In this document: piece after piece, positions 8,974 through 59,856 of the stretch
Layout: each line of letters starts with the position of its first letter
How positions within the stretch are numbered: the first letter of the stretch is position 1
IMG/VR virus record: IMGVR_UViG_3300048928_000482
Location: 798-64,797 of that record
DNA: 64,000 nt
Reading direction: 5' to 3' (one strand)
From: a virus
Taxonomy: Duplodnaviria > Caudoviricetes
Program-made: the position numbers and the translations under genes
The notes under the pieces: generated by a model
What the model was told of the DNA's origin: nothing
Seen by the model: only the letters and a program-made list of their open reading frames with translations
Database searches by the model: none

Positions 8974-9189
8974 TTACACGGGTGTCAAGTTGCTGGCAAG
9001 GCGTCGTGCGGCGCGTCGTCGGAGGATGGTGTCGGTGACGTCGTCGAGGTCGTAGGCGGCGTGGTGCCCGACCTTGATGCGTCGCCAGCCGTCGCGGTGG
9101 GCGATGGTGCGGATGGCGGACGACGAGGGGATGGGCTCGCCTTCCGAGGTGAACGCGGTGATGACGTCGCGCGCGAGCAGCCAGGTCAC
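8974..9189 (-). CDS. Small putative DNA-binding protein
   Basis: 71 aa, SAIRTIAHRDGW...YDLDDV MerR-like wHTH pattern; GTGA overlap. Confidence 0.5.
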   Translation of the reverse strand: MTWLLARDVITAFTSEGEPIPSSSAIRTIAHRDGWRRIKVGHHAAYDLDDVTDTILRRRAARRLASNLTPV

Positions 9190-10216: not shown

Positions 10217-10419
10217 GCGAGGTTGCCGTTCTGCTGATCGATCCAGTCCTGTGCGATGCGCTCACGGCGTTCGAGGACCCGGGCGTCGTTTGATCCCTGA
10301 GCCATCCGGTCGACGGCTCCGGCCCAGCGGTTCACGTACGTGCCGTCGGACTCCTGCCAGACCGAGATGCCGTCGTAAACCTCGGGCAAGACGATCCCGA
10401 GGCGCTCCCGGGCGGTCAC
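10213..10419 (-). CDS. Hypothetical phage protein
   Basis: PEVYDGISVW...VNRW; GTGA overlap. Confidence 0.55.
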   Translation of the reverse strand: MTARERLGIVLPEVYDGISVWQESDGTYVNRWAGAVDRMAQGSNDARVLERRERIAQDWIDQQNGNLA

Positions 10420-25728: not shown

Positions 25729-26304
25729 ATGACACCCGATACCCCGACCACGCTGCGAGACGTCGCCATCGCGGCGTCGCAGCGCGTGGGTGGCCTGCAA
25801 GGCCGCGCCCTCGATCGCGAGGCCAAGCGGCGCGGGCTGACGTTGTCGTACACGACCGTCGACAAGATCATCGCCGGGACGTACAACTCTCGACCCAAAG
25901 CGACCACGCTCCGGGCTCTAGCCGAGCTCTCGGGCATCGCGCTCGCCCAGGTGTACCAAGCGGCAGGGGAGCCGATGCCATCGGTCCCGCTGTCCGAGAT
26001 GTTGCCGCCCGACGCCGATCTCCTGTCTCCCGATCAGCGCCGCGTCGTCATCGACGTGGTGCGCCAGTTCGCCAAGCAGAACCGCGAGCTGGTCGAGGTG
26101 CGAAAGGAGGTGGCGGCCAGTGCTGAGCACCCCGCCCCCATAGCCGACACATCGAAGAACACCCTCACGGTGCGAGGCGAGCCGCTGACAGACCTAGAAG
26201 GTGGTCCGCGGCCGCCGACAGATGGACCTCGTGCTGACGAGGGGTCGACCCCCCATCAAGAACGAGAAGAGGGCCGAGAGCGCCGGACTCCACCGCCGGC
26301 GTGA
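25729..26304 (+). CDS. Immunity repressor (actinophage type)
   Basis: GRALDREAKRRGLTLSYTTVDKI...TLRALAEL...LPPDADLLSPDQR; divergent from cro. Confidence 0.75.
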   Translation: MTPDTPTTLRDVAIAASQRVGGLQGRALDREAKRRGLTLSYTTVDKIIAGTYNSRPKATTLRALAELSGIALAQVYQAAGEPMPSVPLSEMLPPDADLLSPDQRRVVIDVVRQFAKQNRELVEVRKEVAASAEHPAPIADTSKNTLTVRGEPLTDLEGGPRPPTDGPRADEGSTPHQEREEGRERRTPPPA

Positions 26305-26746
26305 GGAGCACTCGAATCAGTGCATGATGACCGGGAGGGGCGGCCACGATCACGCATCCGATCGCGCTCAACGTGATGGTCAGTGCTACGACGCTGTTCT
26401 GTTCCGTGGTGCGCTCCACGTGGCCCTCGCCCTCGAGGTCACGCCGGGCAGGGGGCCGCTCGGCTGGGGGAAAGGCATCGTCACATCGGCCACTGACACG
26501 GGTACATGGCCTCACGGCAAGCCGGGCGGTTCGTCCTGGTTTGTCGCGCCCATATGGGTGGTTTGCGTAGCGAGGCCTTCCCGAACCCTCACGTTCGGCA
26601 TCTCGCATCCGGGTGACGCGATGCGCTCGCATGCACCGAAACTTGAGGCTGGCGCCTCAACTCGCACTCCCCAGAGGCCGATGGCTGGGGGAAGCACGCC
26701 CGCGCGGGCCGTGCGGATCCACGAAGACCAGACCCAGGAGGACGCC

Positions 26747-27418
26747 ATGAAGAAGCAGGGGGCTGCGGCCCTGGTCGCAATCGTGCTAGCACTCGCCGGC
26801 TGCGGCGCGGCCGATGCTGGTGCGGAGAGCACGGAGGCGCCGAAGGAGACGAAGGCATCCGTCGAGCGCGTCACCGTACCGGATGTCGTGGGCATGTCGA
26901 TCGATGATGCGACGTCTAGCCTGACCGCAGAGGGCTTCCCCGTCGAGACGATCGGTGACGTCGGCGAGGTCGAATCGCAGTCGCCGTCTGGCGGAGTCGA
27001 GGTGGATCCCGGGACTTCGGTGATGCTCACCGTGGTGGACAAGGTCGCACAGGAGGCCGCCGCCGCCGAGGCTGCTGCCGCTGAGACTGCGCGAGTCGGC
27101 TCGGTGTCGCAACAGAACGCGTACAAGTCCGCGGTGTCCTACCTGAGTCACTCGGCCTTCTCACGGGCCGGGATCATAGGGCAGCTCACCAGCGAGTACG
27201 GCGAGGGGTACCCGCCGGAAGACGCTGAATTCGCCGTCGCTCGGCTTGAGGCCGAGGGTGGTGTCGACTGGAACGCTGAGGCGGCCGAGTCGGCTCAGTC
27301 GTACCTCAGCCACAGTGCGTTCTCACGGCAGGGACTCCTCGATCAACTCTCGAGCGAGTACGGCGAGCAGTTCACGCCGGAGCAGGCGGAGTACGGCGTC
27401 AGCACCACGGGCCTGTAG
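26747..27418 (+). CDS. Lipoprotein with PASTA domain and two Ltp (superinfection exclusion) repeats
   Basis: Lipobox LAGC; VPDVVGMS...QSP..G PASTA; SAVSYLSHSAFSRAG..QL.SEYGE repeat twice. Confidence 0.88.
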   Translation: MKKQGAAALVAIVLALAGCGAADAGAESTEAPKETKASVERVTVPDVVGMSIDDATSSLTAEGFPVETIGDVGEVESQSPSGGVEVDPGTSVMLTVVDKVAQEAAAAEAAAAETARVGSVSQQNAYKSAVSYLSHSAFSRAGIIGQLTSEYGEGYPPEDAEFAVARLEAEGGVDWNAEAAESAQSYLSHSAFSRQGLLDQLSSEYGEQFTPEQAEYGVSTTGL

Positions 27419-27939: not shown

Positions 27940-29256
27940 CTACGACCTCACATCCTCCTCCTCGCCCTTCTTCTTCGGCGCCGGTCCGATCGCATCGACC
28001 CACGCACCACCCAGGGCGGTGACCGCGGCACGCTTCTCGGCCTCCTGCGCGTGCCGGTACATCTGCGTGACCTGGGCGCTGGAGTGTCCGACGATCTCGC
28101 CGATGACCTGGAAGTCCACCTTGAGCGACGCGAGGATCGTCACCGTGGTGTGCCGCGCCCAGTGCCCAGTCATCGACGTGCCACCGGGGATCGCCTCGGC
28201 CTTGGTGATGACGCCGGCGGTGTGCAGCAGGTCGCGCCACTCCTGGGCGTCGTCCTTCGGGAGGATCGGTGCACCGGTGCCGTCGTGCCAGATGAGCCCG
28301 TGAGGGTTCGGCAGGTGCGCGGTTGCCGCGAGGTGACGACGGATCGCCTCGACGAGCTGGGGGACGAGCGGGATGACGCGCCCGGTCCGGGACTTCGGGC
28401 GCGTGAGGTGCCAGGCACCGGTGAGGCGGATCATCTCGAAGTCGTCAGGGATGATCCATCGCGCCTGCGGGCAGCGAGCGCCCTGCTTGAAGCCGCAGGG
28501 GTCGTCGCCGCAGCCGTGCTGGCGGCGGAGCTCCTCGAGCTTCCACGACACGGTGTAGAGCCCGGCATCGAGATCAAGGTCGGCGAGGGTGGCGCCGAGG
28601 ATCTCACCCTGCCGCTGCCCGACGAGGAGCTTGAACCACCAGCGCGACCCGGCGGAGTCGGGCATCTCGGCGGCGGCCTTGAGGATGGCGACGGCCTGGG
28701 CCGTGGTGAGGGACCCGCGGTCCTTGACGACGACGGCGCCGCGCGCGCCGGGCTTGCGGACGTCGTGCGCGACGTTGGTCCGGACGATCTTCTCCGCCAC
28801 GGCGGCGTCGAGGATCATCGACAGGACGATGTGCGCTTGGCGAACGGTGGAGGTGGCTCGTCCGGCGTCGGTCATCTTGACGCGCAGGGCCCGCACGTCG
28901 GAGGGCTTGAGCGCGGAGACCTTCCTGTGCCCGAGGGTGGGGACGATCCACTTGCGGACGAGGCTGGCGTACCCGGCGTAGGTCTTGGGGTCGATGTCAG
29001 GCTTGGCGACGGTCTCCAGCCAGTGCGGCGCCCACTGCTCGACCTTGACGCTCTTGGCGAGCGGGGAGCCGTGCTCGGTGACCTCGGCGCGCAGGCGGTT
29101 GAGTCGGCGGGCGCACTCGGCCTTGGTCTTGGCGGTGACGTACCACTGCTGGCGGGCTCCGGTGGCGTCGAGCCCGCCGTCGACGACGCCACGCCAGAGC
29201 TTGCCGCCGCGGATCTCGTACAGGGCTCCGTCACCGTGAGAGCGGGTCTTGGGCAT
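27940..29256 (-). CDS. int: Tyrosine integrase
   Basis: GQRQGEILG (R), PKS (K), HWARHT, IVGH, MYRH (Y); N-terminal GDGALY arm-binding domain; Cys-rich insertion. Confidence 0.95.
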   Translation of the reverse strand: MPKTRSHGDGALYEIRGGKLWRGVVDGGLDATGARQQWYVTAKTKAECARRLNRLRAEVTEHGSPLAKSVKVEQWAPHWLETVAKPDIDPKTYAGYASLVRKWIVPTLGHRKVSALKPSDVRALRVKMTDAGRATSTVRQAHIVLSMILDAAVAEKIVRTNVAHDVRKPGARGAVVVKDRGSLTTAQAVAILKAAAEMPDSAGSRWWFKLLVGQRQGEILGATLADLDLDAGLYTVSWKLEELRRQHGCGDDPCGFKQGARCPQARWIIPDDFEMIRLTGAWHLTRPKSRTGRVIPLVPQLVEAIRRHLAATAHLPNPHGLIWHDGTGAPILPKDDAQEWRDLLHTAGVITKAEAIPGGTSMTGHWARHTTVTILASLKVDFQVIGEIVGHSSAQVTQMYRHAQEAEKRAAVTALGGAWVDAIGPAPKKKGEEEDVRS

Positions 29257-29268
29257 CGCTCACCTCCG

Positions 29269-29290
29269 GTGCACACATTAGTGCACACAT
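29269..29290. repeat. Tandem GTGCACACAT repeats, probable integrase arm-type sites
   Basis: Exact 10-mers at 29269-29278 and 29281-29290, between the int start and the att core. Confidence 0.7.
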
Positions 29291-29405
29291 GACTTGACTG
29301 GACATGGGTATGACATGACACCCCACACGATGGGGTCGTTTTGGACCTGACCTGCGGTTTCGCGAGGTGAGAGGTCTGCCAGCCATGTCCACAGCATAGC
29401 GTTTC

Positions 29406-29453
29406 GTCCGACTGTTAATCGGACGGTTGCTGGTTCGAGTCCAGCCGAGGGAG
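29406..29453 (+). tRNA. 3' half only of tRNA-Asn(GTT) = att core (prophage attR / ICE attL junction)
   Basis: TCCGA-CTGTTAA-TCGGA anticodon arm, GCTGG-TTCGAGT-CCAGC T arm, CGAGGGA-G acceptor strand; no D arm or TCCCTCG 5' strand upstream. Confidence 0.88.
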
Positions 29454-29723
29454 CACAGAACCCCCATCTGACGTCGTCAGGTGGGGGTTGTGCTTTTCCG
29501 GGAGCAGTGCGGTCACTTCGACGCCGAGCGCGTCCGCCGCCGCGATGAGGTCGGCGATGGTCCACGGCACCTGTCCGCGGAGTTTCTTCGACACGCCCGA
29601 CTGGCCGATCCCGAGGGCGGCACCGAGTGCTCCCTGCTTGATGCGCTGGCGCCACATGATCTGGTGGACGCGCTCGCCAACCTCGGCGTCGACGCTGATC
29701 TCGGGTCCGATCGGCAGGCTCAT
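29415..29723 (-). CDS. XRE/BetR-like repressor whose 3' end overlaps the att core
   Basis: IKQGALGAALGIGQSGVSKKLRGQVPWT HTH; ends LPRLDSNQQPSD* antisense to the tRNA. Confidence 0.88.
   Translation of the reverse strand: MSLPIGPEISVDAEVGERVHQIMWRQRIKQGALGAALGIGQSGVSKKLRGQVPWTIADLIAAADALGVEVTALLPEKHNPHLTTSDGGSVLPRLDSNQQPSD
29459..29497 (+). terminator. Intrinsic terminator-like hairpin after the tRNA 3' end
   Basis: AACCCCCATCTGAC-GTC-GTCAGGTGGGGGTT followed by GTGCTTTT. Confidence 0.75.
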
Positions 29724-29730
29724 GAGCATG

Positions 29731-29840
29731 AGGCTAGGGCTTGCCCATCGAGGTAGTCAACGACCAAAAGGGGCATATCGCCTCTGTGAGACTGGCAAGT
29801 CCTGACAAGACTTGACCGGGCAACTCGCCCCCTCTACGTT
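29731..29840. promoter_or_regulatory. Divergent leaderless SigA-type promoters with an inverted repeat between them
   Basis: Minus: TTGACT-18-TAGCCT, ATG 7 nt downstream; plus: TTGACC-17-TACGTT, ATG 6 nt downstream; CAAGTC-n7-GACTTG at 29796-29814. Confidence 0.7.
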
Positions 29841-29846
29841 CGATGC

Positions 29847-30077
29847 ATGCCCACCAGGACTGAAGTGCACTCGGAGTACCGGCTGACGACTGGTCAGGCT
29901 GCAGGGCTCCTCGGCGTCAGCGTCCGAACCGTCCTACGTCTCGAGGAACGGGGAGACCTGTGCCCTCGCAGGCTTCCAAGCGGGCATCGGCGGTTCAGTG
30001 AGCACGAGGTCACTTCTCTCATGACTCCCGGCTACTCCGTAGGCGAGCGTCCCAGCGACTTGGTAGACCCGCGATGA
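29847..30077 (+). CDS. MerR/BldC-like HTH (Xis/Cro-like)
   Basis: LTTGQAAGLLGVSVRTVLR...RLPSGHRRF. Confidence 0.85.
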   Translation: MPTRTEVHSEYRLTTGQAAGLLGVSVRTVLRLEERGDLCPRRLPSGHRRFSEHEVTSLMTPGYSVGERPSDLVDPR

Positions 30078-30259
30078 GCCCCCAGGCCGATACGCGCGCC
30101 ACGGCGGTCTATGCGGGCACCTGCGAGTTCTGCGCCAGCGACGTCACGGTGACCGTGCGCCTCTCGCGTGCCTGCTCGGGACGTGAGGAGGGCTTCGACA
30201 TGAGTTCGTGCCCGGGCTGCGGGGCGCTGTTCCCGGTCGAGCTGGTCCGGGTCTCGTGA
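30074..30259 (+). CDS. Small Zn-ribbon protein
   Basis: CEFC...CPGC; overlaps at both ends. Confidence 0.55.
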   Translation: MSPQADTRATAVYAGTCEFCASDVTVTVRLSRACSGREEGFDMSSCPGCGALFPVELVRVS

Positions 30260-31338
30260 GCGCGATCGCTCCGTCCCGGACCGCTTCGGTGCCCACCCTG
30301 TCTGTGGACTCCGCTCGGGAGCTGACGGAGCAGATCCGCGCCTGCGTGGTGCGCACGATCGACGTGCTCGGGGAGATCGACGCGCTGGTGGTCCGGGCGT
30401 ACGAGGGCCGGGCGTGGGTGGTCCTGGGTCACGACTCGTGGGAGGCGTACTGCGCTGCTGAGTTCTCGGACTCGCGGCTGTGGCAGAGCGTCGCTCAGCG
30501 GCAGGCAGCGACGCTGCGCCTGCGAGAGGCCGGGCTGTCGGAGCGAGCCGTCGCGGCAGTCCTGGGCGTCGGGAAGGGGACGGTCGGGCGCGACGTCGAG
30601 TCGGTATCGACTGCCCCGACCGGGGCAGTCGATACCGCTGTGGGGCTGGATGGTCGTGAGCGGCCGGCCCGTCGTCAGGACTCGGCGCAGGTGCGGCGGC
30701 GTTCGGCGACGGTCGTGGCGCTGCGGTCTCAGGGTTGCACGCAGGTGGAGATCGCCGCGCAGCTCGGGATCGCCCAGTCCACGGTGAGCACCTGCCTCGC
30801 GATGGCCACCGCCCGGGGCGAGCTGGATCCGGTCGCGGTGCTGGGCGTGCCCGAGCCCCGGCCGCCCGTCGACGACACCTCGGTCGAGACGTCGACGGTG
30901 CCAGCGCCGTCGCGTGCTGGGGCGCTGATCGCAGAGGCGGCGGCGCGCGCTGCTGCTCTGTCGACGCACGTGCGTGCGCTGCGCGAGACGGTCGTCGACG
31001 CCGACGAGTGGACGAGCGACGTGCTGCTCGCGGCGGATGTCGCCGACGTCGTGAGCACGCCTCTCGCCGAGGTGGCAGGCGAGCTCGAGTACGTCCTGGC
31101 GCACCTCGACGAGTCGCCGTCGCGGCTCCATGTGCCGCCGTCGGCGCGCTCGCACGTCCTGCGTGCCCGGCGGGTGCGGCAGATCGCCCGGGCGCTCGCG
31201 TCGGGGCAGAGCACGCCCCAGGTCGCGGCGGGCCTGGGGATCGATGTCGACGTCGTGGTCCGTGTGGACAGCGAGGTCGCGGCGCTACCGGCTGACCGCC
31301 GCCCGGGCGCCGGCGGACATCAGGTCTCGGGCGGCTGA
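30256..31338 (+). CDS. Multi-HTH DNA-binding protein
   Basis: RAWVVLGHDSWEAYCAAEF motif and three HTH-like segments. Confidence 0.75.
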   Translation: MSAIAPSRTASVPTLSVDSARELTEQIRACVVRTIDVLGEIDALVVRAYEGRAWVVLGHDSWEAYCAAEFSDSRLWQSVAQRQAATLRLREAGLSERAVAAVLGVGKGTVGRDVESVSTAPTGAVDTAVGLDGRERPARRQDSAQVRRRSATVVALRSQGCTQVEIAAQLGIAQSTVSTCLAMATARGELDPVAVLGVPEPRPPVDDTSVETSTVPAPSRAGALIAEAAARAAALSTHVRALRETVVDADEWTSDVLLAADVADVVSTPLAEVAGELEYVLAHLDESPSRLHVPPSARSHVLRARRVRQIARALASGQSTPQVAAGLGIDVDVVVRVDSEVAALPADRRPGAGGHQVSGG

Positions 31339-32252: not shown

Positions 32253-32731
32253 TGGCGCCGGGTCGGGGTCGGTGGGCGCAGGTCGGCGGCTCGGCCTGGA
32301 CGGTGGTCGTCCATCCGGACGCGGGGTGGTGGCCGCGGGCGGTCACCCGCATCGCGGCGACTGCCGTGTGCCGCCTCGTCGGGCTCGCGGGTGGGTCGCG
32401 GTGGCTGCCGCAAGCCGTCGTGAGACTCGCGGGTGGGCGTCTGGTGGAGCCGGTGCGGTTGTGCGACCCCGACGAGGACGACCTGGGGATGCCATCGCGC
32501 TTCTTCGTGCTCAGTGCGGATGCCGCTGACCGCACGGTTGAGCACGACCCGTCGACGGCGGGGCTGGTGCACGAGCTGCTGTGGCACGCGGGGCGGCCGG
32601 CGACGAGCGCAACCGGCGACTGGGCGAGCGCCGCGCACGAGCGTGACGCGGACGAGGCAGATGTTCCCTGTCAGGCCTGGGTGCAGTTCGTGCTCCGTGT
32701 CTTGTCGCTGCGCGCCGGGCAGGTGCGATGA
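32249..32731 (+). CDS. Hypothetical protein
   Basis: Coupled ORF in the ICE operon. Confidence 0.5.
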   Translation: MMAPGRGRWAQVGGSAWTVVVHPDAGWWPRAVTRIAATAVCRLVGLAGGSRWLPQAVVRLAGGRLVEPVRLCDPDEDDLGMPSRFFVLSADAADRTVEHDPSTAGLVHELLWHAGRPATSATGDWASAAHERDADEADVPCQAWVQFVLRVLSLRAGQVR

Positions 32732-33711
32732 GCTCGCCGGTAACGCATGGTGGTGGCGCCTTCGCCGCGGCGATGTGGCCGGGCCTGTGGCTCTCGGGTG
32801 TCTTGGCCGTCCTGGCGTTCGCGCTCTCGTTCTCCGCGCTGTCGGCCGTCGGTGTCGCCTCGGGGATCGACCCGCGGCTCGGTTGGGCGTTCCCGTTGAT
32901 CATCGACGGGTTCATCCTGCTCGCGACCTGGGCCGCGTGGCGGTTCCGTGCTCAGGGGTTGCGGGGCGCCTGGTACCCGTGGGCCGCGTTCGTGGTGTTC
33001 TCGGCGGTCTCGATGACGGGCAACGCATTGCACGCTCACCCGGTCGAGGTGAACGGTCTGCTGCTGGCCGGGTGGGCGGCGACGGCGTTCTCGACGGTGC
33101 CCTCCATCGCCCTGCTCGTGGCCTCGCACATGCTGCTGATGATCGCCACGGCTCGGGTCGCGCCGCGGAACTCAGGTGCGCACGCCGTCCATGGCGAGCG
33201 CGTCGTCGAGTCCGCTGGGGAACGCGACGGGGCGGCGTCGTCGGACCCGGTCCAGGTGTCCCCGATGACCGATCCCGCGCCTGCGGGTGTCCCACCGCGG
33301 CCCAGCGGTCGTCCGGTGCGGGCGAGTTCGTCAGTTCCGTCTGGTCAGGGTCGACCGACGGAGGGCGACCGGGTGCCGACACCGGCACGGAACGGTCACG
33401 AGGCACTCCGGGCGGGCGTCGAGGTGGCCGTTCGTCCTCGGGCTCTGACCCTCGTTCGGCAGTCCGCTGCTCTCGCGACGGCTCCGGACCTCGTGGTTCT
33501 CGAACAGCCGCAGGTCCCCACTGCCTCGACAGTCTCGGCGGCGGGGTCGCCGGTCGCTGACTGGGTGGCCGCGCGCGTCGCGGATGGCCTGCCGGTGACG
33601 GGACGAGAGCTCGTGTCGGCGGGGCTGGCGACCTCGGAGTCGACGGCGCGGCGGTGGCTGCGCGAGCTGCGCGCTGTCGACCCCGGAGTCTTCGTCGGGC
33701 AGCGCCGATGA
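32728..33711 (+). CDS. DUF2637/SpdA-like membrane protein with C-terminal HTH
   Basis: AFALSFSAL...WAFPLIIDGFIL...SMTGNALHA...VPSIALLVASH; TSESTARRWL. Confidence 0.8.
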   Translation: MSSPVTHGGGAFAAAMWPGLWLSGVLAVLAFALSFSALSAVGVASGIDPRLGWAFPLIIDGFILLATWAAWRFRAQGLRGAWYPWAAFVVFSAVSMTGNALHAHPVEVNGLLLAGWAATAFSTVPSIALLVASHMLLMIATARVAPRNSGAHAVHGERVVESAGERDGAASSDPVQVSPMTDPAPAGVPPRPSGRPVRASSSVPSGQGRPTEGDRVPTPARNGHEALRAGVEVAVRPRALTLVRQSAALATAPDLVVLEQPQVPTASTVSAAGSPVADWVAARVADGLPVTGRELVSAGLATSESTARRWLRELRAVDPGVFVGQRR

Positions 33712-37266: not shown

Positions 37267-37409
37267 CTCGCCGCGAGCTGAGCGGGAGACGCGGTGTCCA
37301 CGCCGCGACCGCTTGAGGATCTGATGACCGACCTGCGCACCCCGAGCACGAGCGGCCCTCGCCGCGCCGGCACCCGAGCTCGCGGCGCGCGCCCCCGCGC
37401 GGGGCGCTG

Positions 37410-38144
37410 ATGGCCACGCCCGTCGTGGTCGCGGCGACCGCGAAGGCCGCGCTCTCGAAGAAGCTGCGGCGCCGGATCGGGTGCGGGTGCCTGCTCGCCG
37501 TGACCGTCCCCGTGCTGTGCGTGTTCCTGGTCCTGGTCGGTGTGCTCGGTGGGGCGCAGATGGTCCTGGGCGGGTTCGACGAGGCCGAGGGCCTGGCCAC
37601 CGCGGCACCCGCCGCCGGTGGCGGGTACCCCGGCGGGGAGGTCTCCTACGACGCTGACGGGTCCATATTCGTCGACCGCGGCGGATCGGCGAACGCCTGG
37701 GGCGGGCACTCCAACGGGCGCATCCCCGACGGCGCGCTGTGCTCGCTGAGCATGCGCCCGGCGCTGCGCGCCCGGTGCGACGCCGCGGACGCCCTGGACC
37801 GGCTGAACGCCGCCTACGTCGCGGAGTTCGGGGTCAGCATCGCCGTCACCGACGCCTACCGGGACCACGCCGGGCAGGTCGCGATCAAGAAGTCCTGGTG
37901 CGACCGGGGCCGCTGCGCCATGGCCGCCACCCCAGGGACATCGAACCACGGGTGGGCGATCGCGTTCGACCTCGGCGGCGGGATCAACACCTACGGGTCC
38001 GCGCCGTACGCCTGGATGAAGAACAACGCCGCCGCCTTCGGGTTCTACCACCCGACCTGGGCCGAACCCGGTCACCCCGACTACGCCAAGCCCGAGCCGT
38101 GGCACTGGCAGTACCTGTCCGGCGCCGATCCCTCGGCCCGCTGA
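37410..38144 (+). CDS. M15B (VanY-like) D,D-peptidase, conjugation-associated peptidoglycan hydrolase
   Basis: N-terminal TM; AYR, AATPGTSNHGWAIAFD and EPWHW motifs. Confidence 0.88.
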   Translation: MATPVVVAATAKAALSKKLRRRIGCGCLLAVTVPVLCVFLVLVGVLGGAQMVLGGFDEAEGLATAAPAAGGGYPGGEVSYDADGSIFVDRGGSANAWGGHSNGRIPDGALCSLSMRPALRARCDAADALDRLNAAYVAEFGVSIAVTDAYRDHAGQVAIKKSWCDRGRCAMAATPGTSNHGWAIAFDLGGGINTYGSAPYAWMKNNAAAFGFYHPTWAEPGHPDYAKPEPWHWQYLSGADPSAR

Positions 38145-39313: not shown

Positions 39314-39640
39314 GTGAGCACACCCCTGGCGGGCCTCATGCCCGCGGACGGTGACATCCCCGACAACATGGGCGTGAAGATCGACTTCGACGCGTTCCCG
39401 TGGATGGCCCAGCTGCAGGAGTGGGCCGGTGGCCTGCAGGCCACGTTCCTGATCCTGGTCGGGATCTTCGTGGTGGTGGGCGTGGGCATGTGGGTCGCGG
39501 GGCGGCTGTCGTCCTCCCAGCAGGTCCAGAAGGTCTCGGCGACGGTCGTGCTGATCGCGTTCGTCGCCGCGATCGTGATCGCCGCGGCGTTCGCGATGCT
39601 CGTGTGGGCGACCGGGTTCAACATGGGCTTCGGGTCGTGA
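39314..39640 (+). CDS. Pilin-like (DUF6112/VirB2-like) protein
   Basis: IDFDAFPWMAQLQEWAGG then two TMs; AGGAGG RBS. Confidence 0.7.
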   Translation: MSTPLAGLMPADGDIPDNMGVKIDFDAFPWMAQLQEWAGGLQATFLILVGIFVVVGVGMWVAGRLSSSQQVQKVSATVVLIAFVAAIVIAAAFAMLVWATGFNMGFGS

Positions 39641-41556
39641 CCACGGCCACCACCCCCAGCATGCTCACCCCGGCCGACCGCGCGCGGGTCGGCGTGCAGC
39701 GCCTCGGGCTGGAGCTGACCACGGTTCCGGCCCTGGCGGGCTCGTGGTGGGCCGGCAAGCGCGCCGCGTCCCGGCGCCGCCTGCGTGCCGTCGCGACGGC
39801 CGGGCTGCTGGTGGGGGTGGTGGCTCTGTGCACCGCCGGGTGGTGGGATCCGGCGATCGACGCGGTGTTCGGCGCGATCGGCGGATGGATCGTCAACGCC
39901 GCCGTCGACGCGATCGCGGAGGCCTCGACGCAGTTCATGTCGTTGGCGTTCAACAACCCGCTCACCGAGATCTCCGAGGGGGAGTGGGCGGTCGCGATCC
40001 GGCAGGCCTCCCGCTGGGGTGCGGTGTTCGCGGTCGTGGCGGTCGGGGCGTGTGCGGTCGAGGTCGTCGCCTCCCTCATCGCTCGCGACGCCGCCCGGGC
40101 GCTGCGTGCCGGGATCATCGCGGCCACCGCCTGGCCGATGACGGTCGCCGCGATCCTGGCCCTGGCCGAGCTCGTCGCGATCACTGACGGGCTGTCCGGG
40201 CAGATGTTCGACAACGTCGCCGGTGACGGCGCCACCGGGTCCGCGGCCGCCGCCTCCGCGATGGGCGCCGCGATGGGCGGGCTGACCGCCGCGACCCTCG
40301 GGGTGTCCGCGTGGCCACTGGTCGTGATCGGCGCGCTGGTGTGCATCGTCGGGCTGCTGATGATCGCCATGGTGATGTCGGCGCGCGCGTTCGGGCTGCT
40401 GGTGGCCACCGGCATGGCCCCGATCGCGCTGATGCTCGTGGGCTTCAAGGGCACCCGCGGGATGGCCCGCAAGTGGGTCGAGGTCGTCGCCGGGCTGCTG
40501 CTCGCCAAGCCCCTGGCCGCCGGGATCATCGTGCTGTGCCTCGAACTGGCCGGTGAGGGCTCGCTGGACTCGTTCATCATGGGCACCGTCGGGCTCTGGG
40601 TCGCGGTGTTCTCACCTGCCATGGCGATGTCCCTGGTGTCGTTCGCGGGCGCACACCTCGGCGCAGCGATGACCGCGCACGCCTCCGCGTTCAAGAACCT
40701 GGCCGCCCAAGCCACGCAAGCCGCAGCCACCCGGCTCGCGCTGGAGGGACCGAACAGCGAGGGGCTGTCCAAGCTCGCCCACGACACCGCCGGACTGGTC
40801 AAGGCCGGCATCGGCGGCCTGGACACGATGGTCAGCTCCCTGGGGTCGAAGCTGAACACCACACCCGCCCGCGACGACGAGGGCTCCGATGACGGCGCAC
40901 CGGACCCGGCCTACGGTAGCGACGACCCGACGACGACACCGCAGGACGGCCCGGGCGACACCGAGGACACCAGCACGGGCGACGGCACCGAGGAAGATGG
41001 CGACCTCGCCTCGACCGACCACCCGGACACCGGCCCCGACGACCCGACCCCTGACTCCGGCGACCCGGCCCGTGAACCCGTGACCGACCCCGAGCCCAGC
41101 AGTGAGTCCGGCCCCGACGACGGCGACGACCATCGAGCTCCGGCTCCCGTCGAGGAGCCCAGCAGCGATGTGGACGAACCGGCGCCGGGCTCGGGGAGTG
41201 GTGGGGGCGCCGCCGACGGACCGTCGCCGGGTCCCGAGGGGTCGACGGCGCCCGGTACAGCGCCAGCGAGCCCCGCTGGTGCGGGGCCTAGGAGCGGCCC
41301 CGGTGCCCCGGGATCGGCCGGCACGTCGTCGGTGACCGACCCTGGCGCGCCCCCGGCGTCGTCCAGCGGCACCGGCGCAGGAGGTCCGGGCGGCCCCGGG
41401 GTCGACGATGCCGCTGCCGCGCCGCAGGAGCAGCGCGGCCCGACGCCCGTCTCGGCGCCCGCTCCCGGACCGGCTCCCGCCCCACCTGGTCCCGCGCCCG
41501 CACCGGGTCAGGGCGCGGGTGGCTCGGGTGGCCCGAACCCGTTCGGCAGCAGGTGA
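39637..41556 (+). CDS. VirB6/TrbL-like polytopic membrane protein with acidic Pro/Gly tail
   Basis: Multiple TMs, MAPIAL...ARKW...LLAKP motif. Confidence 0.78.
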   Translation: MTTATTPSMLTPADRARVGVQRLGLELTTVPALAGSWWAGKRAASRRRLRAVATAGLLVGVVALCTAGWWDPAIDAVFGAIGGWIVNAAVDAIAEASTQFMSLAFNNPLTEISEGEWAVAIRQASRWGAVFAVVAVGACAVEVVASLIARDAARALRAGIIAATAWPMTVAAILALAELVAITDGLSGQMFDNVAGDGATGSAAAASAMGAAMGGLTAATLGVSAWPLVVIGALVCIVGLLMIAMVMSARAFGLLVATGMAPIALMLVGFKGTRGMARKWVEVVAGLLLAKPLAAGIIVLCLELAGEGSLDSFIMGTVGLWVAVFSPAMAMSLVSFAGAHLGAAMTAHASAFKNLAAQATQAAATRLALEGPNSEGLSKLAHDTAGLVKAGIGGLDTMVSSLGSKLNTTPARDDEGSDDGAPDPAYGSDDPTTTPQDGPGDTEDTSTGDGTEEDGDLASTDHPDTGPDDPTPDSGDPAREPVTDPEPSSESGPDDGDDHRAPAPVEEPSSDVDEPAPGSGSGGGAADGPSPGPEGSTAPGTAPASPAGAGPRSGPGAPGSAGTSSVTDPGAPPASSSGTGAGGPGGPGVDDAAAAPQEQRGPTPVSAPAPGPAPAPPGPAPAPGQGAGGSGGPNPFGSR

Positions 41557-43007
41557 GCGGGATGAGCGCAGAGCTGCCGGAGGCCGTGTTCGCGCGGGTC
41601 TCCCGCACCGGGGTGATCGCCGGGCTGTCCGGTCCGCAGCTGGCCCTGGCCGCCCTCGGTCTGGCCCGTCCGATGTGGGAGCTCGTGGCCAGCTCGAACC
41701 TGCCCGGCGCGCTGGGTGCGTTGCTGTGGTGGACGACGCCGCTGGTGGTGCTCGCGTGCGGGTCGTGGAGGGGCAGGTCGTTCCTGGAGAGGGTGAACGT
41801 GATGGGGTTGTTCTCGCTGCGACAGGTCCTGGGCCAGACGCGCGCCGTCGTGCGGGTGGGCGCCCAGCACCGGGCCGGAGCGATCGCGGTCCCCGGTGCC
41901 CTGGGTGACCGGCTCACGACCCTGGACATGGTCGGCACCGCGTTCGGCGGGGCGTTCCTGTGGGACCAGGTCACCCAGGAGGCGACCGTCGTGCTGCGCG
42001 TCACCACCGAGGGCTGGCCACTGGCAGCGCCGGCCCAGCAGAGCGGCCGAGCCCGCGGGCTGTCGGACCTGTGCCAGCGCCTGGCGTCCGTGGAAGGGAT
42101 CTGCCGGGTCGTCAAGCACTCCCGGACCTATCCCGTCCCGCCGCTGTCCGCCCCCGTCGGAGCAGCCGGCGCCCTGGTGCGGGTCGACGCCGAGGAGCTC
42201 GCCGAGCACCCCGCGATGCAGACCCTGCGCGGCCGGGACGAGGTCATCACGATGACGCTGGACGCGCGCGCCGTCGCCGCGGAGATCGACGCGGCCGGCG
42301 GGGGGATCGAGGGGCTGTCCTGGGCGCTCGGCGACCGGGTCGGGCAGGTCGTCCTCGGACTGCCCGAGTGCGGCGTGCGCACCCAGGACGCCACCTGGTG
42401 GTCCGCCGGGCAGATCCGGGCCGCCGTACGCCTGGCGTTCGACCCGGACGCCGCCGGGCTGCTCGCGGAGTCGGGGTGGAGCCTGGACGACGGGGCGGTG
42501 ATCGCCTCGGTCGCCGACGAACGCTACGACCACCTGGTCACCGACACCGCGGTGCATCGGACCCTGTGGGTCGAGACGTGGCCGTCGATCCCCGCACGGG
42601 CCGGGTTCCTGTCGAACCTCGTCGCGACCGGGACCATCACCCGCACGTTCACCCAGATGTGGTGCCCGGGGCAGGTGTACTCCGCGGAGAAGCGCCTGCT
42701 GAACGCCGAGGCGTCGCACAACTCGGCCACCGCCGTGAACACCAAGCTCGGACGCCCCGCACCGATCGCGCACACCACCGAGGGCAAGGAGCTGCGCCGC
42801 CGGCGTCGCGAGCTCGAGGCCGGGTACGCCGACGTGCGGCACTCCGGATGGATCACGTTGACGGCGGCGGACGTCGAGGAGCTGCGCGCCGCGGAGATGT
42901 GGGTGCGCAGCACCGCGCGGGGGTTGGGGCTCAAGACGCTGCGCGGAGACCAGTGGGCGGCGTTCTGCACCGCGGCGCTGCCGCTGGGGATCGGACCGCG
43001 CGCATGA
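41553..43007 (+). CDS. SCO6880/PrgI (VirB3-like) protein
   Basis: SRTGVIAGLSGPQL, HRTLWVETWP, QWAAFCTAALPLG. Confidence 0.82.
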   Translation: MSGMSAELPEAVFARVSRTGVIAGLSGPQLALAALGLARPMWELVASSNLPGALGALLWWTTPLVVLACGSWRGRSFLERVNVMGLFSLRQVLGQTRAVVRVGAQHRAGAIAVPGALGDRLTTLDMVGTAFGGAFLWDQVTQEATVVLRVTTEGWPLAAPAQQSGRARGLSDLCQRLASVEGICRVVKHSRTYPVPPLSAPVGAAGALVRVDAEELAEHPAMQTLRGRDEVITMTLDARAVAAEIDAAGGGIEGLSWALGDRVGQVVLGLPECGVRTQDATWWSAGQIRAAVRLAFDPDAAGLLAESGWSLDDGAVIASVADERYDHLVTDTAVHRTLWVETWPSIPARAGFLSNLVATGTITRTFTQMWCPGQVYSAEKRLLNAEASHNSATAVNTKLGRPAPIAHTTEGKELRRRRRELEAGYADVRHSGWITLTAADVEELRAAEMWVRSTARGLGLKTLRGDQWAAFCTAALPLGIGPRA

Positions 43008-44617: not shown

Positions 44618-45276
44618 CCCACCCCACCACCCACGGGGACGACGCCCCGCCGGGCACCGACCACCGAGTGCGGCTGCTGCCAGCGGGCACCGAACGGGTG
44701 ACGGGCCTGAGCGTCGATGCCGTGGCGTCGCGGATCGGGTCCGCGGGCGGCTGGCCCGCCGCGGTGCACCACTCCCGGGCGTGGGCCGGTGCTCGCCGGT
44801 ACCTGCCGGTCTACCGGTGGGCAGCCGGGCTGGATGATCGGACCATCGCGGCGACCGTCGCTGCGGGATGGGGCGCGTGGCTGCTCGGCGGTCTGCTCGC
44901 CCACCTGCTCGGCGGCCCGGGCGCCGTCGTCCCGGGCGTGGTCCTGGCGGTCGTGCTCGCCGTGGTCGACGTCGCGGTGGTGTCCTGGTGGATGGGGTAC
45001 CGGCGGTCCCCGGCGCGTCTGCGGCACGCGATCTTGGCCCGCGAGCAGATCGCGGCCGGGCGCGAGCTCGCGGACTCCTCGCTGGGCGGCCGTCAGGTCG
45101 CGGGTGCGGGCGCTCAGGTGCGCCCGTCCCTCGCAGCCGGGCAGCTCGACTCCGGTCCGACGCGGCGTCGGGTGACCGCGATCGGCCCCGAAGGACGGCA
45201 CCGCGCCTGCCACCCTGGAACGCTGCCGACCTGCGCGTTCACGCACTCCGACCTAAATGCGGGTGCGCCGCGATGA
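44614..45276 (+). CDS. Membrane N-terminal half of the type IV coupling protein
   Basis: Two TMs followed by QVRPSL, the usual pre-ATPase linker of actinobacterial TraG. Confidence 0.6.
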   Translation: MTHPTTHGDDAPPGTDHRVRLLPAGTERVTGLSVDAVASRIGSAGGWPAAVHHSRAWAGARRYLPVYRWAAGLDDRTIAATVAAGWGAWLLGGLLAHLLGGPGAVVPGVVLAVVLAVVDVAVVSWWMGYRRSPARLRHAILAREQIAAGRELADSSLGGRQVAGAGAQVRPSLAAGQLDSGPTRRRVTAIGPEGRHRACHPGTLPTCAFTHSDLNAGAPR

Positions 45277-46655
45277 CGGCGAGGTTGCTTCCCGGGCAGG
45301 TGGCGCTGCCGCTGGGGCACAGCCGCAGCGTGCCGCTGTGGGTCTCGCTGGAGCGGCCCGTGTACGTGCTGGGCGCGGCCCGGTCGGGCAAGGGCACGCT
45401 GATCGTGGTCCCGTTCATCCTGGCCGCCCCCGGTGCGGTGGTCACGACCAGCACCCGGACCGACAACCTGCGCCTGTCCGCGGCGTGCCGGGCGGCCCTG
45501 GGACCGGTCGAGGTGTTCAACCTCGACGGCGTCGGAGGGTTGCCGCACACCATGGACTGGTCCCCGCTGGAAGGCTGCCAGGACCCGGCCGTCGCCCAGC
45601 GTCGCGCCCGCACGCTGGTGGCCGCGACCGGGATGTCCGGGGAGAACGCCCCGTGGGCGACCACCAGCGGGGGGATCGTGCAGGCGCTGCTGCACGCCGC
45701 GGCGCTCGAGGGCCGCACGATCGCGGACGTCTACACCTGGTCGAGGTCCCCGGCCCGCGCGGACGAGGCGATGCGGATCCTGGAGACCCGGGGGCTGGGT
45801 GACGCCTGGCACCTGACGATCGCGCAGGTCCGGGAGGAGGACGCCCGGATGCGCGCGAACAAGTGGTTCGGCGTCGACAACGCGTTCGCCGGCCTGGCGG
45901 TCAAGGCGGTGCGTGAGCGGCTCGTCCCGCGCCGCGGGCCCGCCTCGTTCAGCACCGAGGAGTTCTTGGCGGGTGCCGGCACCTGCTACATGATCGCCCG
46001 CGGCGCGAACGTCACCGAGGGCTCCACGACCGCGGGGACCGTGGGCGGGTTCTACTCGCTGTTCCTGGACCACGTCACCGACACCGCCCGCCGGCTGTCC
46101 CAGGGCGCGGTCGGCGGGCGCCTGGACCCGCCGCTGACGATCGTGGCCGACGAGCTCGCGCACATCGACCCGTGGCCCGCGGCACCGCGCATGTCGGCGG
46201 CCGGCGGGGGAGAGGGCATCCAGCTCGTGACCGTGTTCCAGTCCCGCGATCAGGCTGCCGCCGCGTACGGCGAGCACGCCGAGGCGACGATGTGGGACAA
46301 CTCCACGAACGTGATCCTCGGTGGCGGGAAGTCCGAGGACTACCTCGGGGCGATCTCGCGCACCCTCGGGGAGGTCGAGCACACCCGCACCCGGTCCTCG
46401 TTCAGCACCCGCGACATCTGGTCCAGGGACACCTCCGTGGACTCCGAGTGGCGGCCGGCGATCACCGTCGACGAGCTGCGACGCCTACCCGTGGGGACCG
46501 CGCTGGTCGTGCAGGACCGCATCCGCCCGGTCCTGGCCGACCTGGTCCCGTACTGGGACGGCCCGCACGGTGCGTGCTGCGCCGCGTCGGTGGCCTGGCA
46601 CGAGTCGAACCCCGGTCACGTCCTGACCTCACGCCCGGTCCCGGCGGCGGCATGA
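45273..46655 (+). CDS. VirD4/TraG coupling-protein ATPase domain
   Basis: GAARSGKG Walker A, APGAVVTTSTRTD, WSPLEGC, VADELAHI Walker B, GGGEGI..VFQS. Confidence 0.88.
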   Translation: MTARLLPGQVALPLGHSRSVPLWVSLERPVYVLGAARSGKGTLIVVPFILAAPGAVVTTSTRTDNLRLSAACRAALGPVEVFNLDGVGGLPHTMDWSPLEGCQDPAVAQRRARTLVAATGMSGENAPWATTSGGIVQALLHAAALEGRTIADVYTWSRSPARADEAMRILETRGLGDAWHLTIAQVREEDARMRANKWFGVDNAFAGLAVKAVRERLVPRRGPASFSTEEFLAGAGTCYMIARGANVTEGSTTAGTVGGFYSLFLDHVTDTARRLSQGAVGGRLDPPLTIVADELAHIDPWPAAPRMSAAGGGEGIQLVTVFQSRDQAAAAYGEHAEATMWDNSTNVILGGGKSEDYLGAISRTLGEVEHTRTRSSFSTRDIWSRDTSVDSEWRPAITVDELRRLPVGTALVVQDRIRPVLADLVPYWDGPHGACCAASVAWHESNPGHVLTSRPVPAAA

Positions 46656-48692: not shown

Positions 48693-49229
48693 CTACCGGT
48701 CGATCTCGATGAACTCTGCCGGGACGCGGTCGGCTAACCAGACCTTCTCGTTCCCGACGTAGAACGCCACGGCGGCCTCGGCTGCCGCACGGGCGGCGAC
48801 GACCACGATTGCCGGCTCTGACGCCTTGCGTGCGCCCACCGCTTCCGCCGCAGCGCGATTGACCGATAGGTGCACGAACTGCCGACCCATCGCCCGGAGC
48901 CCATCGACCCGGATCATCTCGGCAGCGGTCGGTGAAGTCCCGTGGAACAGCTCAGCCGGCGGGGTCGCGGGCACCCGCTCGATCCGGCCGGGCAGCGAGT
49001 GCCCGTAGAGCGCGCGGATGCGCCCATCCCGGATCTCGTGACGCTGCTTGCTCGCGCCGGCCACCATCGCCTCGATGTCGGCGACCGTCAACGACGACCA
49101 GTCACGCTCGCACCGCAATGCGTCGACCAGCGACTGCAGCGACACCCAACCTGCCTCGTCGAGCTCCAGCTCGTAGAGCCACGGCTCGTGACGAAGCGCG
49201 TGAGACACCGCTCGACTCAGTTCAGTCAA
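48693..49229 (-). CDS. kptA: RNA 2'-phosphotransferase (Tpt1/KptA)
   Basis: LSRAVSHALRH, KQR, RIRALYGHS, LFHGT, GL..MGRQFVHLS, VWLADRVP; catalytic R-H-R-R tetrad present. Confidence 0.93.
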   Translation of the reverse strand: MTELSRAVSHALRHEPWLYELELDEAGWVSLQSLVDALRCERDWSSLTVADIEAMVAGASKQRHEIRDGRIRALYGHSLPGRIERVPATPPAELFHGTSPTAAEMIRVDGLRAMGRQFVHLSVNRAAAEAVGARKASEPAIVVVAARAAAEAAVAFYVGNEKVWLADRVPAEFIEIDR

Positions 49230-49575
49230 AGTCGATCAGGTCCTCAACAGCCTGGCGCAACCAGGCATAGAAGTCGGGATACTCATCGCGGTTCTCCCAG
49301 CCAGGAGCGGCGAAGTCGTGGATGACGACGACTCGATCCCCGCCGTGAACCAGGTCCCAGCAGGCGACATCGTCGTTGTCCTGGCGCGACGCAAAGGGGA
49401 CCAGTTCGCGAGCCGGGAACCGCTCGGACAAGCCGTCCTTTCGCTCGCGCAGCGCTGCACCCTCCAAGACGTGCCATGGCTCGAGGTGTGTCAGCCCCAG
49501 CTCGACGACCCTCACGAACGACGGCGGGTACCAAAAGCCGCGAGGCAGATCCTCCACCGGCAGAAGATCAGCCAC
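49222..49575 (-). CDS. Immunity protein (SUKH/SMI1-KNR4-like)
   Basis: GTG overlapping the Rhs stop; LVPFASRQDNDDVACWD...VVVIHDF...FYAWL. Confidence 0.8.
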   Translation of the reverse strand: MADLLPVEDLPRGFWYPPSFVRVVELGLTHLEPWHVLEGAALRERKDGLSERFPARELVPFASRQDNDDVACWDLVHGGDRVVVIHDFAAPGWENRDEYPDFYAWLRQAVEDLIDFD

Positions 49576-56723: not shown

Positions 56724-56823
56724 CCAGCCCCCTGGGTGTGCGACCCCGCGGTCACTCCCCGGGGTACAGCCGGGACCTTAGGCCCACAGCAGACCACCAG
56801 AGAAGACCTATAAGCCGTTCAGG

Positions 56824-57924
56824 TCACTCACCCAGGACGTCCAGCCAATGCTCGGTCGCCCGATCGGGGGAAGGTGGCACGAAGTAGTAGCCGCCACCCG
56901 TCGTCAGCAGGTAACGATCCAGGTCCTGGCCTGCGAGCCGCCGTTGCACGCCCGCGAACCCGGCCCCCAGGTCGGCCTGGAACGACATGAACACGAGCCC
57001 GTCCTCGACTCCGCCGCTCGGCAGGTCCATCGAGTAGTTCCACGAACGCCGCAGCATCCGCGGCTCGAAGGACCCGTCCCGAGGGTTGGCTCGACGCACA
57101 TGGGACGCCAACGGGGTGATGACTCCTTCGGGGTCACCAGCGAAGTCGGGCTCCTCGAACGCCTCCGACCCATCGAGCCACCCCCCGTCGCGACGACGCC
57201 CGATGATGCGCTCCTGCTCGACCACGGGATCCGCGTCCCACAGCCGGGTAGCGAGCTGGATCACCCTCACCGCCATGAAGCTCCCGCCCGCCACCCAGCC
57301 CTGCTCGCCCGCTGAACCGATCAAGATCCCCTCGTCCGGATCCGCCGCCCGCGACATCTCCGCGTTGCCGTGCCCTTCGACGAACCCGAACCCGTTGCGC
57401 ATCAACGCACGCCCGGACGTAACCGTGTTCTCCGGCCGGGACACCGGTACCCGCCATCTCGTGACGAGCCCCTCCACCGACTCGAGTCCGTCCGCGACCC
57501 GCGCAGCCACCGCCGCGTCATCACTCCCGACCTGCACCAGGAGATCACCACCGGTGCGCTCGGCCCGCAGCACATCACCGGGAAAGCTCTCCATCACACT
57601 CAGGCCGCGAGGCGTCAGCCGCTCCTTGCCCAACCGCGCGAACAGGGATCCCCCCAGCGCGATCGTGACAGAAGCACCCGTCGGAGGATCGTCCACCAGA
57701 CGCACGAGCGTGCGCAGCGTCCCCAGAGCGTCCTGCGACTCGGCCAGGTCGAGCATGACCACCACGCCGAACGCCTCAGGAACCGTCAGCGCCGGGTGCG
57801 AGCTGCGCGCAACGTCACCTCGCCAGGGACACCCCGCCAGCACGAACGGCAGAGACAGCGCCGCGACCCCTGCCCCCACCAGAACCGCACGCCGACGAAC
57901 TCCGCGATCCCCCTGGTCCTGCAC
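56824..57924 (-). CDS. Dyp-type (EfeB-like) peroxidase with Tat/lipoprotein-like signal
   Basis: RRRAVL..LAGC, GGDLLVQ, RNGFGFVEG, GGSFMAVR, SHVRRANPR, MLRRSWNY, GGGYYFVPP. Confidence 0.85.
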   Translation of the reverse strand: MQDQGDRGVRRRAVLVGAGVAALSLPFVLAGCPWRGDVARSSHPALTVPEAFGVVVMLDLAESQDALGTLRTLVRLVDDPPTGASVTIALGGSLFARLGKERLTPRGLSVMESFPGDVLRAERTGGDLLVQVGSDDAAVAARVADGLESVEGLVTRWRVPVSRPENTVTSGRALMRNGFGFVEGHGNAEMSRAADPDEGILIGSAGEQGWVAGGSFMAVRVIQLATRLWDADPVVEQERIIGRRRDGGWLDGSEAFEEPDFAGDPEGVITPLASHVRRANPRDGSFEPRMLRRSWNYSMDLPSGGVEDGLVFMSFQADLGAGFAGVQRRLAGQDLDRYLLTTGGGYYFVPPSPDRATEHWLDVLGE

Positions 57925-59702: not shown

Positions 59703-59856
59703 GTTCGGGTCCGCATCCAGCGCCCTCGGCCTTCGGGTCGGGGGCGCTGTCGTGTGCTGCCCCGATATCGGAGCAGTTGCCGGTCGGGCCCGGGTGTGGG
59801 TGAGGGGGCAGTGCCGTCGTGTGGCGGCGCGTCCCTGAGCGTGCGTGGAGGTTGCG

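Follow-up and report, generated by a model that had tools for sequence, protein, structure and literature searches.

A Probable Integration-Dependent Repressor Switch on an ICE-Like Element in tRNA-Asn

The repressor gene and the tRNA fragment

Can a repressor gene whose stop codon lies in the anticodon loop of a tRNA report whether the mobile element that carries it is integrated or free? The question is raised by a window of 64,000 nucleotides (71% G+C) that covers almost the whole of a 64,797-base IMG/VR virus record, which is classified as linear and 61% complete. In the window, the repressor gene of an element that we call B overlaps the 3′ part of a tRNA-Asn gene, and the features that meet there are the following.

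29404–29455, plus strand: 3′ part of tRNA-Asn(GTT) and att junction, with the anticodon stem-loop, variable loop, T arm and acceptor 3′ strand
29415–29417, minus strand: TAA stop codon of the XRE ORF, complement of T35-T36-A37 in the tRNA-Asn anticodon loop
29415–29729, minus strand: repressor gene of element B, encoding an XRE-family HTH protein of 104 aa (ORF listing and Pfam)
29459–29489, plus strand: intrinsic terminator hairpin of the tRNA, within the XRE ORF (14 pairs, then a T-run)
29730–29846, no strand: control region from which the XRE and HTH genes diverge, containing an inverted repeat (29796–29814)
29847–30077, plus strand: small DNA-binding protein of the MerR/HTH_17 type, encoded divergently from XRE; its positional counterpart in locus L002 is 53% identical

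The repressor carries an XRE/BetR-type HTH domain at residues 15–80 in Pfam, where BetR scored above its cut-off (1.9e-7) and both HTH_31 (1e-5) and HTH_3 (1.2e-3) fell slightly under theirs. The terminator hairpin, read in antisense, encodes residues from about 80 to 91, and the tRNA, likewise read in antisense, residues 92–104; the C-terminal residues are ...GGSVLPRLDSNQQPSD / ...LLPEKHNPHLTTSDGGSVLPRLDSNQQPSD. The TAA stop is the reverse complement of TTA within the loop CTGTTAA of the anticodon stem-loop TCCGA-CTGTTAA-TCGGA. A first-pass annotation had described both the antisense run of this ORF through the hairpin and the tRNA 3′ half and the position of its stop; the former was confirmed by the ORF listing, Pfam and the hairpin analysis, and the latter by the bases themselves. 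The hairpin is the sole terminator-like site within 29250–30100, and the fold of 29397–29505 has a z score of −5.7. Since the same arrangement of a repressor gene running into a tRNA recurs in dozens of independent loci, the overlap goes beyond chance. By eye, a recurrent peptide, NP[H/R]P...DGG, lies just N-terminal of the tRNA-derived residues in these proteins and corresponds to the translated C5/G5 stems of the terminator hairpin, which suggests a constraint on the DNA and not on the protein.

The same annotation had the shared bases also serve as a tRNA, a claim that the analysis did not bear out. The tRNA-Asn in the window is a fragment whose 5′ half is absent; ARAGORN reported no tRNA anywhere in the window, and Rfam aligned 29397–29445 to positions 8–63 of the tRNA model with 26.4 bits, short of the gathering score of 29, so that no working tRNA is present here. 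Resemblance to real tRNA-Asn genes begins at about tRNA position 26–27, that is, at 29404–29406. A 30-nt segment of the T arm also matches, with 0 mismatches, the copy adjoining a B-like element in genome G549, and the 49-nt and 25-nt cores occur once each in the window.

Upstream, 117 nt separate the start of the XRE gene from the divergent HTH gene, and no sigma-70 consensus promoter was found in 29730–29846. The small MerR/HTH_17 protein is either Cro-like or an excisionase, and with it the locus presents the divergent Cro-like gene and short control region of a BPs cassette.

Short and long repressors among relatives

Homologues of the B repressor were found at 57–59% identity, with nothing above 58% in a search of 5.8 billion proteins and nothing above 59% in a metagenome scan. 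A family-wide DNA search gave no near-identical copy of B, the values for G522 and G549 being 69% and 66%. Scans of genomes and viral contigs with the XRE protein yielded 30 loci, of which 25 were classified by context; L006, L007 and L008, which are antisense of the tRNA only and have no HTH domain, were left out, as were L023, in which the tRNA part is absent, and L030, which is an attR. Outside these 30, L105 was also not counted, since it has no tRNA part.

Abutting an intact tRNA-Asn, 8 loci: protein ends ...LPRLDSNQQP[S/F/A]D, with the stop at the loop TAA
On a provirus record, at its cut end, 8 loci: protein end and stop as in the first group
Without an intact tRNA, 9 loci: protein 7–50 residues longer

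A tyrosine integrase of 294–357 aa lies just downstream on the same strand in all ten copies formed by the nine extended loci and L030. When the 10 extended copies were aligned on the T loop, the tRNA sequence was kept up to position 36–37, and TAC stood in place of TAA in 6 of them. More broadly, attP and attR copies of the relatives hold TAC, TGC or other sense codons at the stop position, the attP copies mostly TAC. As in BPs, then, the stop of the integrated form sits at attL and is supplied by the host, here as the TAA of the anticodon loop set against the sense codons of the relatives.

The metagenome set gave the same partition. It comprised 17 loci, one of them without the tRNA part. 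All nine loci with an intact tRNA-Asn, two of which matched over the tail only, stop at TAA with no extra residue and no integrase, and all seven loci without the tRNA are extended by 15–54 residues, have Tyr at the stop position and, in six cases, are followed by an integrase. Both forms are also represented by two proteins that are 90% identical to one another, P0002 (90 aa, ending QQPSD) and P0001 (120 aa, ending ...TERAA), each 57% identical to the repressor in the window. Within a single provirus, G005 (43 kb, 97% complete), both ends are present: at attL the repressor stops at TAA, and at attR the frame runs on into the arm for 15 residues, as far as the beginning of the integrase ORF. 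The genes of G005 include tail, RecET and replication functions (PHROGs), and the HK97 capsid and TraG families had no match in proviruses G001–G005. In M. terreus (G006) and in G522, a single core copy and no attR was found.

Two further loci are of interest in their own right. L002 and L043 are two contigs of one MAG (G009), in which one and the same arm, together with the small Cys-rich ORF and the tail (...EEQAA), is attached to two distinct XRE and HTH modules, with nearly identical genes beyond the modules; they could be heteroimmune relatives or a tandem array. L005, a contig of Arcanobacterium haemolyticum, has a second, diverged tRNA-Asn core at a distance of 1.2 kb from the intact tRNA (9082–9117 and 10262–10297), with the XRE gene alone separating the two, so that the locus looks like a remnant element.

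Element B and its relatives at other tRNAs

Element B is integrated in tRNA-Asn and runs from 29404 rightwards beyond the end of the record, which gives it a size of more than 34 kb. Beyond the control region, its recognizable genes include the following.

30208–31338, plus strand: multi-HTH protein, marker of B-like elements, 58–62% identity in G549 and G522
32728–33711, plus strand: DUF2637 membrane protein (family match)
37317–38144, plus strand: VanY-type peptidase (Pfam)
39355–41556, plus strand: TrbL/VirB6-like membrane protein, a weak match (E 0.003, below cut-off)
41292–43007, plus strand: SCO6880-family protein (158 bits against a cut-off of 60)
44838–46655, plus strand: TraG/VirD4-type coupling protein (TraG-D_C 1.6e-23; T4SS-DNA_transf 1.8e-16)

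The coupling protein, of the TraG/VirD4 type to be expected in an ICE of this kind, matched PF12696 with 83 bits and PF02534 with 60 bits, and its counterpart in G549 is 81% identical. The TrbL/VirB6-like protein is conserved in G522, G094 and G064, the VanY-type peptidase is a probable cell-wall hydrolase of the transfer apparatus, and a sigma-70-like protein is also encoded. Neither a relaxase nor a VirB4-type ATPase was found among the B ORFs tested against Pfam, PHROGs and NCBIfam, in which several large ORFs belong to no family; the coupling protein and the conserved gene set nonetheless suggest that B is conjugative. When ten B proteins were compared with PHROGs, the sole match to a virion family was that of a peptidase domain to a tape-measure family, and a carrier with TraG, SCO6880 and TrbL-like genes is not the temperate phage that carries the BPs cassette. 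The right end of B, its integrase and a second core copy are absent from the 64.8-kb record; because the right end lies outside it, the attP of B can be predicted and not rebuilt.

Further to the right, B appears to bear cargo. A 2400-aa RHS-repeat protein with TIG and DUF6531 domains (49575–56777, minus strand) is directly followed by a Tpt1/KptA-family RNA 2′-phosphotransferase gene (48693–49235, minus strand), and the two may be B cargo, perhaps a polymorphic toxin locus; a DyP-type peroxidase gene (56824–58023, minus strand) lies within the same cargo. An ORF at 59839–63984 (plus strand), open at the end of the window and at least 1381 aa long, is 64% identical to an ORF of the B-like element in G549 and matched nothing in Pfam, PHROGs or NCBIfam; it could be the missing relaxase or a helicase.

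Homologues of the multi-HTH marker were present in 11 of 401 genomes sampled from the order. Six of their 12 loci adjoin tRNA-Lys or tRNA-Met, and in all six the XRE gene runs antisense into the tRNA, its stop falling in the loop or stem of the anticodon arm or, once, in the D arm. Second core copies were found for these elements, which include those at tRNA-Met in G064, G237, G309 and G347 and that at tRNA-Lys in G094. Both ends of the G094 element are on a single contig at a distance of 29.9 kb, and between them lie TrbL-like, SCO6880 and TraG genes together with a small integrase that is 32–41% identical to the integrases following XRE homologues; at the stop position, TGA is replaced by TGG. 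The gene order of the G064 element is that of the window. At tRNA-Asn itself, G522 shows the B gene order beside an intact tRNA-Asn, and G549 has an intact tRNA-Asn, a small integrase and close counterparts of B (XRE 57%, HTH protein 58%, TraG 81%, giant ORF 64% identity). The G549 attR reads TAC at the stop position and adds 30 further residues (YGSGL...ECGA) after the shared ...QQPSD; a Cys-rich ORF and then the integrase follow this extension. The nearest relatives of B belong to the family of the MAG that holds L002, labelled Cellulomonadaceae. Read in the repressor frame, the attR copies of the other elements add the following numbers of residues.

G064: about 34
G237 and G309: about 36
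G347: about 44
G094: 60
G214 (tRNA-Lys): none; TGA is retained in the shared core

The stop is thus host-supplied in six of the seven genomes with a B-like element of conjugative type. In G214, the stop lies inside the part common to both att sites, so the repressor would not differ between the two states. The integrase lies at the far end in matching orientation in G549, G094 and G064, and an integrase with flanking direct repeats is present in G094 (on one contig), G064 and G549; the window holds one core copy and no B integrase. The two element ends are on different contigs in G549, G237 and G309, and the G347 integrase matches in two frames and may be broken.

A separate observation concerns the T stem. 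Comparison of 29425–29454 with L087 and L088 (G549) and L085 (G505) showed that one T-stem pair is G-C (GCTGG/CCAGC) in the ICE-side tRNA-Asn copy and A-T (ACTGG/CCAGT) in the displaced host copy of G549 and the native gene of G505. With the A-T pair, the antisense frame meets a TAA before the loop; the element-borne tRNA copy, which replaces the host T stem, keeps the repressor frame open.

In BPs, the long form of the repressor bears a C-terminal degradation tag, and the first-pass annotation had expected an ssrA-like tail ending in -AA. The expectation held for several relatives: -AA ends the long-repressor tail in 4 of 9 extended genome and viral loci, in P0001 and in 3 of 7 metagenome loci. 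The integrases that follow XRE homologues end in -AA in 6 of 10 cases, against 2 of 27 genes in the window, and this frequency on tails and integrases would fit the tags of BPs. It failed for the ICE-type elements, whose five distinct tails end in CGA, ADR, VTW, ATR and GRI and whose integrases lack -AA in three of three cases. Instability of the ICE long form is thus inferred from BPs. By eye, the tails of L016, L025, L027, P0001, L104, G549 and G094 share a stretch resembling VVDLxEYR, VIDFxxYR or LVDLxxFR, which may reflect conservation either of the peptide or of an integrase-binding site in the arm.

The proposed switch, rival readings and known systems

To the left, the fragment adjoins a second mobile element, prophage A, whose tyrosine integrase had been overlooked earlier and which makes the site a tandem or hybrid junction. 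Its genes, mostly on the minus strand, include capsid, portal, DnaB, DNA methylase and PD-(D/E)XK nuclease, and the features nearest the fragment are as follows.

26201–27418, plus strand: Ltp-type surface lipoprotein with a PASTA domain, a prophage A gene beside the integrase
27940–29256, minus strand: tyrosine integrase of prophage A, 438 aa, with a SAM-like N-terminal domain (family match)
29257–29403, no strand: arm of the prophage A att site, with two GTGCACACAT repeats at 29269–29290

Since the right end of an element in a plus-strand tRNA carries the displaced 3′ fragment, the tRNA fragment is attR of prophage A and attL of element B. The host tRNA half would have been replaced on the left by the prophage A arm. 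Because the core and arm of A include the whole anticodon stem-loop, the B repressor still meets TAA and stays short. The two GTGCACACAT copies are direct repeats immediately upstream of the A integrase, and a similar pair is visible by eye before the integrase of Microbacterium phage vB_MoxS-R1 (L093, 1–175).

We consider it probable that B carries a BPs-type integration-dependent repressor switch in tRNA-Asn. In this mechanism, the element would carry the tRNA 3′ part from about position 36–37 onward, often with the tRNA terminator, and the repressor ORF would cross both in antisense; the stop would be absent from the element, with T35, T36 and A37 coming from the host tRNA half on integration. 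Judging by the relatives, excision of B would convert the stop to a sense codon, mostly TAC, lengthen the repressor by some 7–60 residues and bring both a small Cys-rich ORF and a small tyrosine integrase to lie downstream of it on the same strand. By analogy with BPs, the integration state would be readable from the form of the repressor as well as from integrase expression. Should the long form share the instability known from BPs, the divergent HTH gene and the transfer genes would be released from repression on excision and silenced again once the element integrates in a recipient. The extension on excision and the re-linkage of the integrase to the repressor operon are well supported by comparison of the loci, and destabilization of the long form would follow the BPs precedent. 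The earlier proposal that the ICE uses BPs logic therefore stands in part: it is supported as to the host-supplied stop of the B-like elements and of their phage-type relatives and as to the BPs-like gene layout, and less well borne out as to the -AA end, which several relatives have and the ICE-type tails lack. Among the run contigs listed, no joint or loose end of a circular form of B was found, which neither supports nor opposes excision.

Alternatively, the overlap might be a by-product without a regulatory role: the tRNA 3′ end carried by the element would merely happen to adjoin its first gene, and the long form would behave like the short one. Two points count against the switch here: in DNA of 71% G+C, an ORF runs on until its first chance stop, and the stop of the G214 element persists in both states. 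The ICE-type tails without -AA, the wide variation among tail sequences, the two different reading frames used by the tRNA-Met elements and the end of the HTH domain near residue 80 all agree with such a by-product. It does not readily explain why the design recurs at three tRNAs in both phage-type and ICE-type elements, why attP departs from the tRNA exactly at the stop (TAA to TAC in 6 of 10 copies, Tyr in 7 of 7, TGA to TGG in G094) or why -AA ends are far commoner in the tails and integrases than in other genes, and the same layout works as a switch in BPs according to passages of PMC4557955. We regard the by-product as unlikely, if the more serious of the contenders.

The other two alternatives concern the junction. 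Were the integrase at 27940–29256 the partner of the XRE gene, the site would be an attP with TAA in its core and the repressor would be identical in both states; the order of XRE gene, partial tRNA and integrase on one strand is indeed that of the excised forms. This integrase, which lies 150 nt to the left of the tRNA fragment, is nevertheless 438 aa long and without BLAST likeness to the small integrases of 294–369 aa that follow XRE homologues, adjoins the Ltp lipoprotein and a full set of phage genes, and has its best match in the phage collection in the vB_MoxS-R1 integrase (46%), with no relatives found in the viral contigs. On the corresponding side of the B-like elements in G549 and G522 lie an intact tRNA and host DNA, and runs X2 and X3 contain the left end of B at about 95% identity and only scattered short matches to prophage A, an X2 contig continuing from 29407 into GCAGAGCA as in a whole tRNA-Asn. 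The prophage A integrase is not the partner of the XRE gene, and we give this alternative hardly any weight. The site is instead the junction of prophage A and the ICE-like element B, possibly an assembly join through the conserved tRNA-Asn, in which case B would lie beside an ordinary intact tRNA and the context, not the reading of the repressor, would change. The run evidence consists of contigs built from 31-mers. In the probable source run, the contigs break within the tRNA part, one ending at 29436 and one starting at 29418, and depth rises from about 10 in the flanks to 248 in the bin of the tRNA part, which speaks for a join. Any repeat, however, will break contigs of 31-mers, tandem insertion at a single tRNA has been described (a passage of PMC9934374) and occurs in G094, and the contigs flanking the break have similar depths (9.5 and 10.4), which makes a real tandem likely and an assembly join improbable.

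The integration-dependent immunity of BPs-type phages was reportedly set out by Broussard et al. in 2013. In passages of three papers (PMC3694055, PMC4557955 and PMC8092301), it is described for mycobacteriophages BPs, Brujita, Charlie and cluster P, for some Gordonia phages and for M. abscessus prophages. B resembles these systems in that the integrated repressor is the shorter form with its stop at attL, in that the free form would have repressor and tyrosine integrase on one strand and a divergent small HTH gene (as passages of PMC3694055 and PMC4557955 describe), in that many relatives here have -AA on the long repressor and integrase, and in that integration takes place in the 3′ part of a tRNA gene. 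It differs in its carrier, which has TraG, SCO6880 and TrbL-like genes and no virion genes and is known from sequence alone; in its target, tRNA-Asn, with sister elements at tRNA-Met and tRNA-Lys; in the small Cys-rich ORF between repressor and integrase in L002 and G549; and in the ICE-type tails and integrases, which are without -AA.

Among conjugative elements, expression across the att junction depends on integration state in Tn916 and ICEclc, and circularization alters expression across their joint. The like is reported for ICEKp1 (PMC13023037). The parallel here would be the placing of the integrase behind the repressor promoter. In those cases it is transcription that alters, whereas here the repressor coding sequence itself would alter. 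The actinomycete integrative and conjugative elements pSAM2 and SLP1 are small and transfer by a TraB/FtsK-type protein; B, at more than 34 kb with a TraG/VirD4-type coupling protein, differs from them in both respects. With these elements (PMC2440964) B has in common integration at a tRNA 3′ end, actinobacterial hosts and, as predicted from its relatives, a tyrosine integrase. In openly searchable full texts, no paper was found that ties the switch to conjugative elements or pairs it with the term tRNA-Asn; one paper contains both "integration-dependent immunity" and "conjugative", and in the passages concerned applies the former to prophages. The switch is thus already described for temperate actinophages, and its carriage by an ICE-like element seems to be what is new here.

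How an ICE commits to transfer after excision and is silenced after integration is understood for few families only, and the problem would be solved very simply by a repressor whose coding sequence depends on whether the element is integrated. Should the long form prove inactive, one small cassette would govern both phage lysogeny and ICE transfer, which would support the idea of an old, portable switch and would supply a sequence-only rule that separates integrated from free copies in metagenomes. Tentatively, and with rather less confidence than we place in the switch on B, we picture an actinobacterial conjugative family in which anticodon bases provide the stop of the master repressor, and in which the length of the repressor, perhaps its stability, and its linkage to the integrase report integration; int, rep and cro would form a module portable between phages and ICEs and used at least at tRNA-Asn, tRNA-Met and tRNA-Lys, and the att core of a neighbor would set the state of an inner element.

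If this is true of tandem arrays, the inner element would be silent, as in this window, or in the long form, as in G094, according to the att core of its neighbor. Passages of PMC9934374 describe the tandem M. abscessus prophages prophiT36-2a and prophiT36-2b, both with integration-dependent immunity, at one tRNA-Thr site. They resemble the present junction in that one tRNA harbors a tandem pair of elements and a stop must still be met by the inner repressor at a hybrid junction; here, the outer element is instead an unrelated prophage with a long integrase, whose core, containing the whole anticodon loop, keeps the stop. At L069 (G094:C1, about 904237), tRNA-Lys is occupied by a tandem of two ICE-like elements. 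The repressor of the second reads into the arm of the first and so has the long form (+60 aa); the HTH gene of this second element contains two TAG stops.
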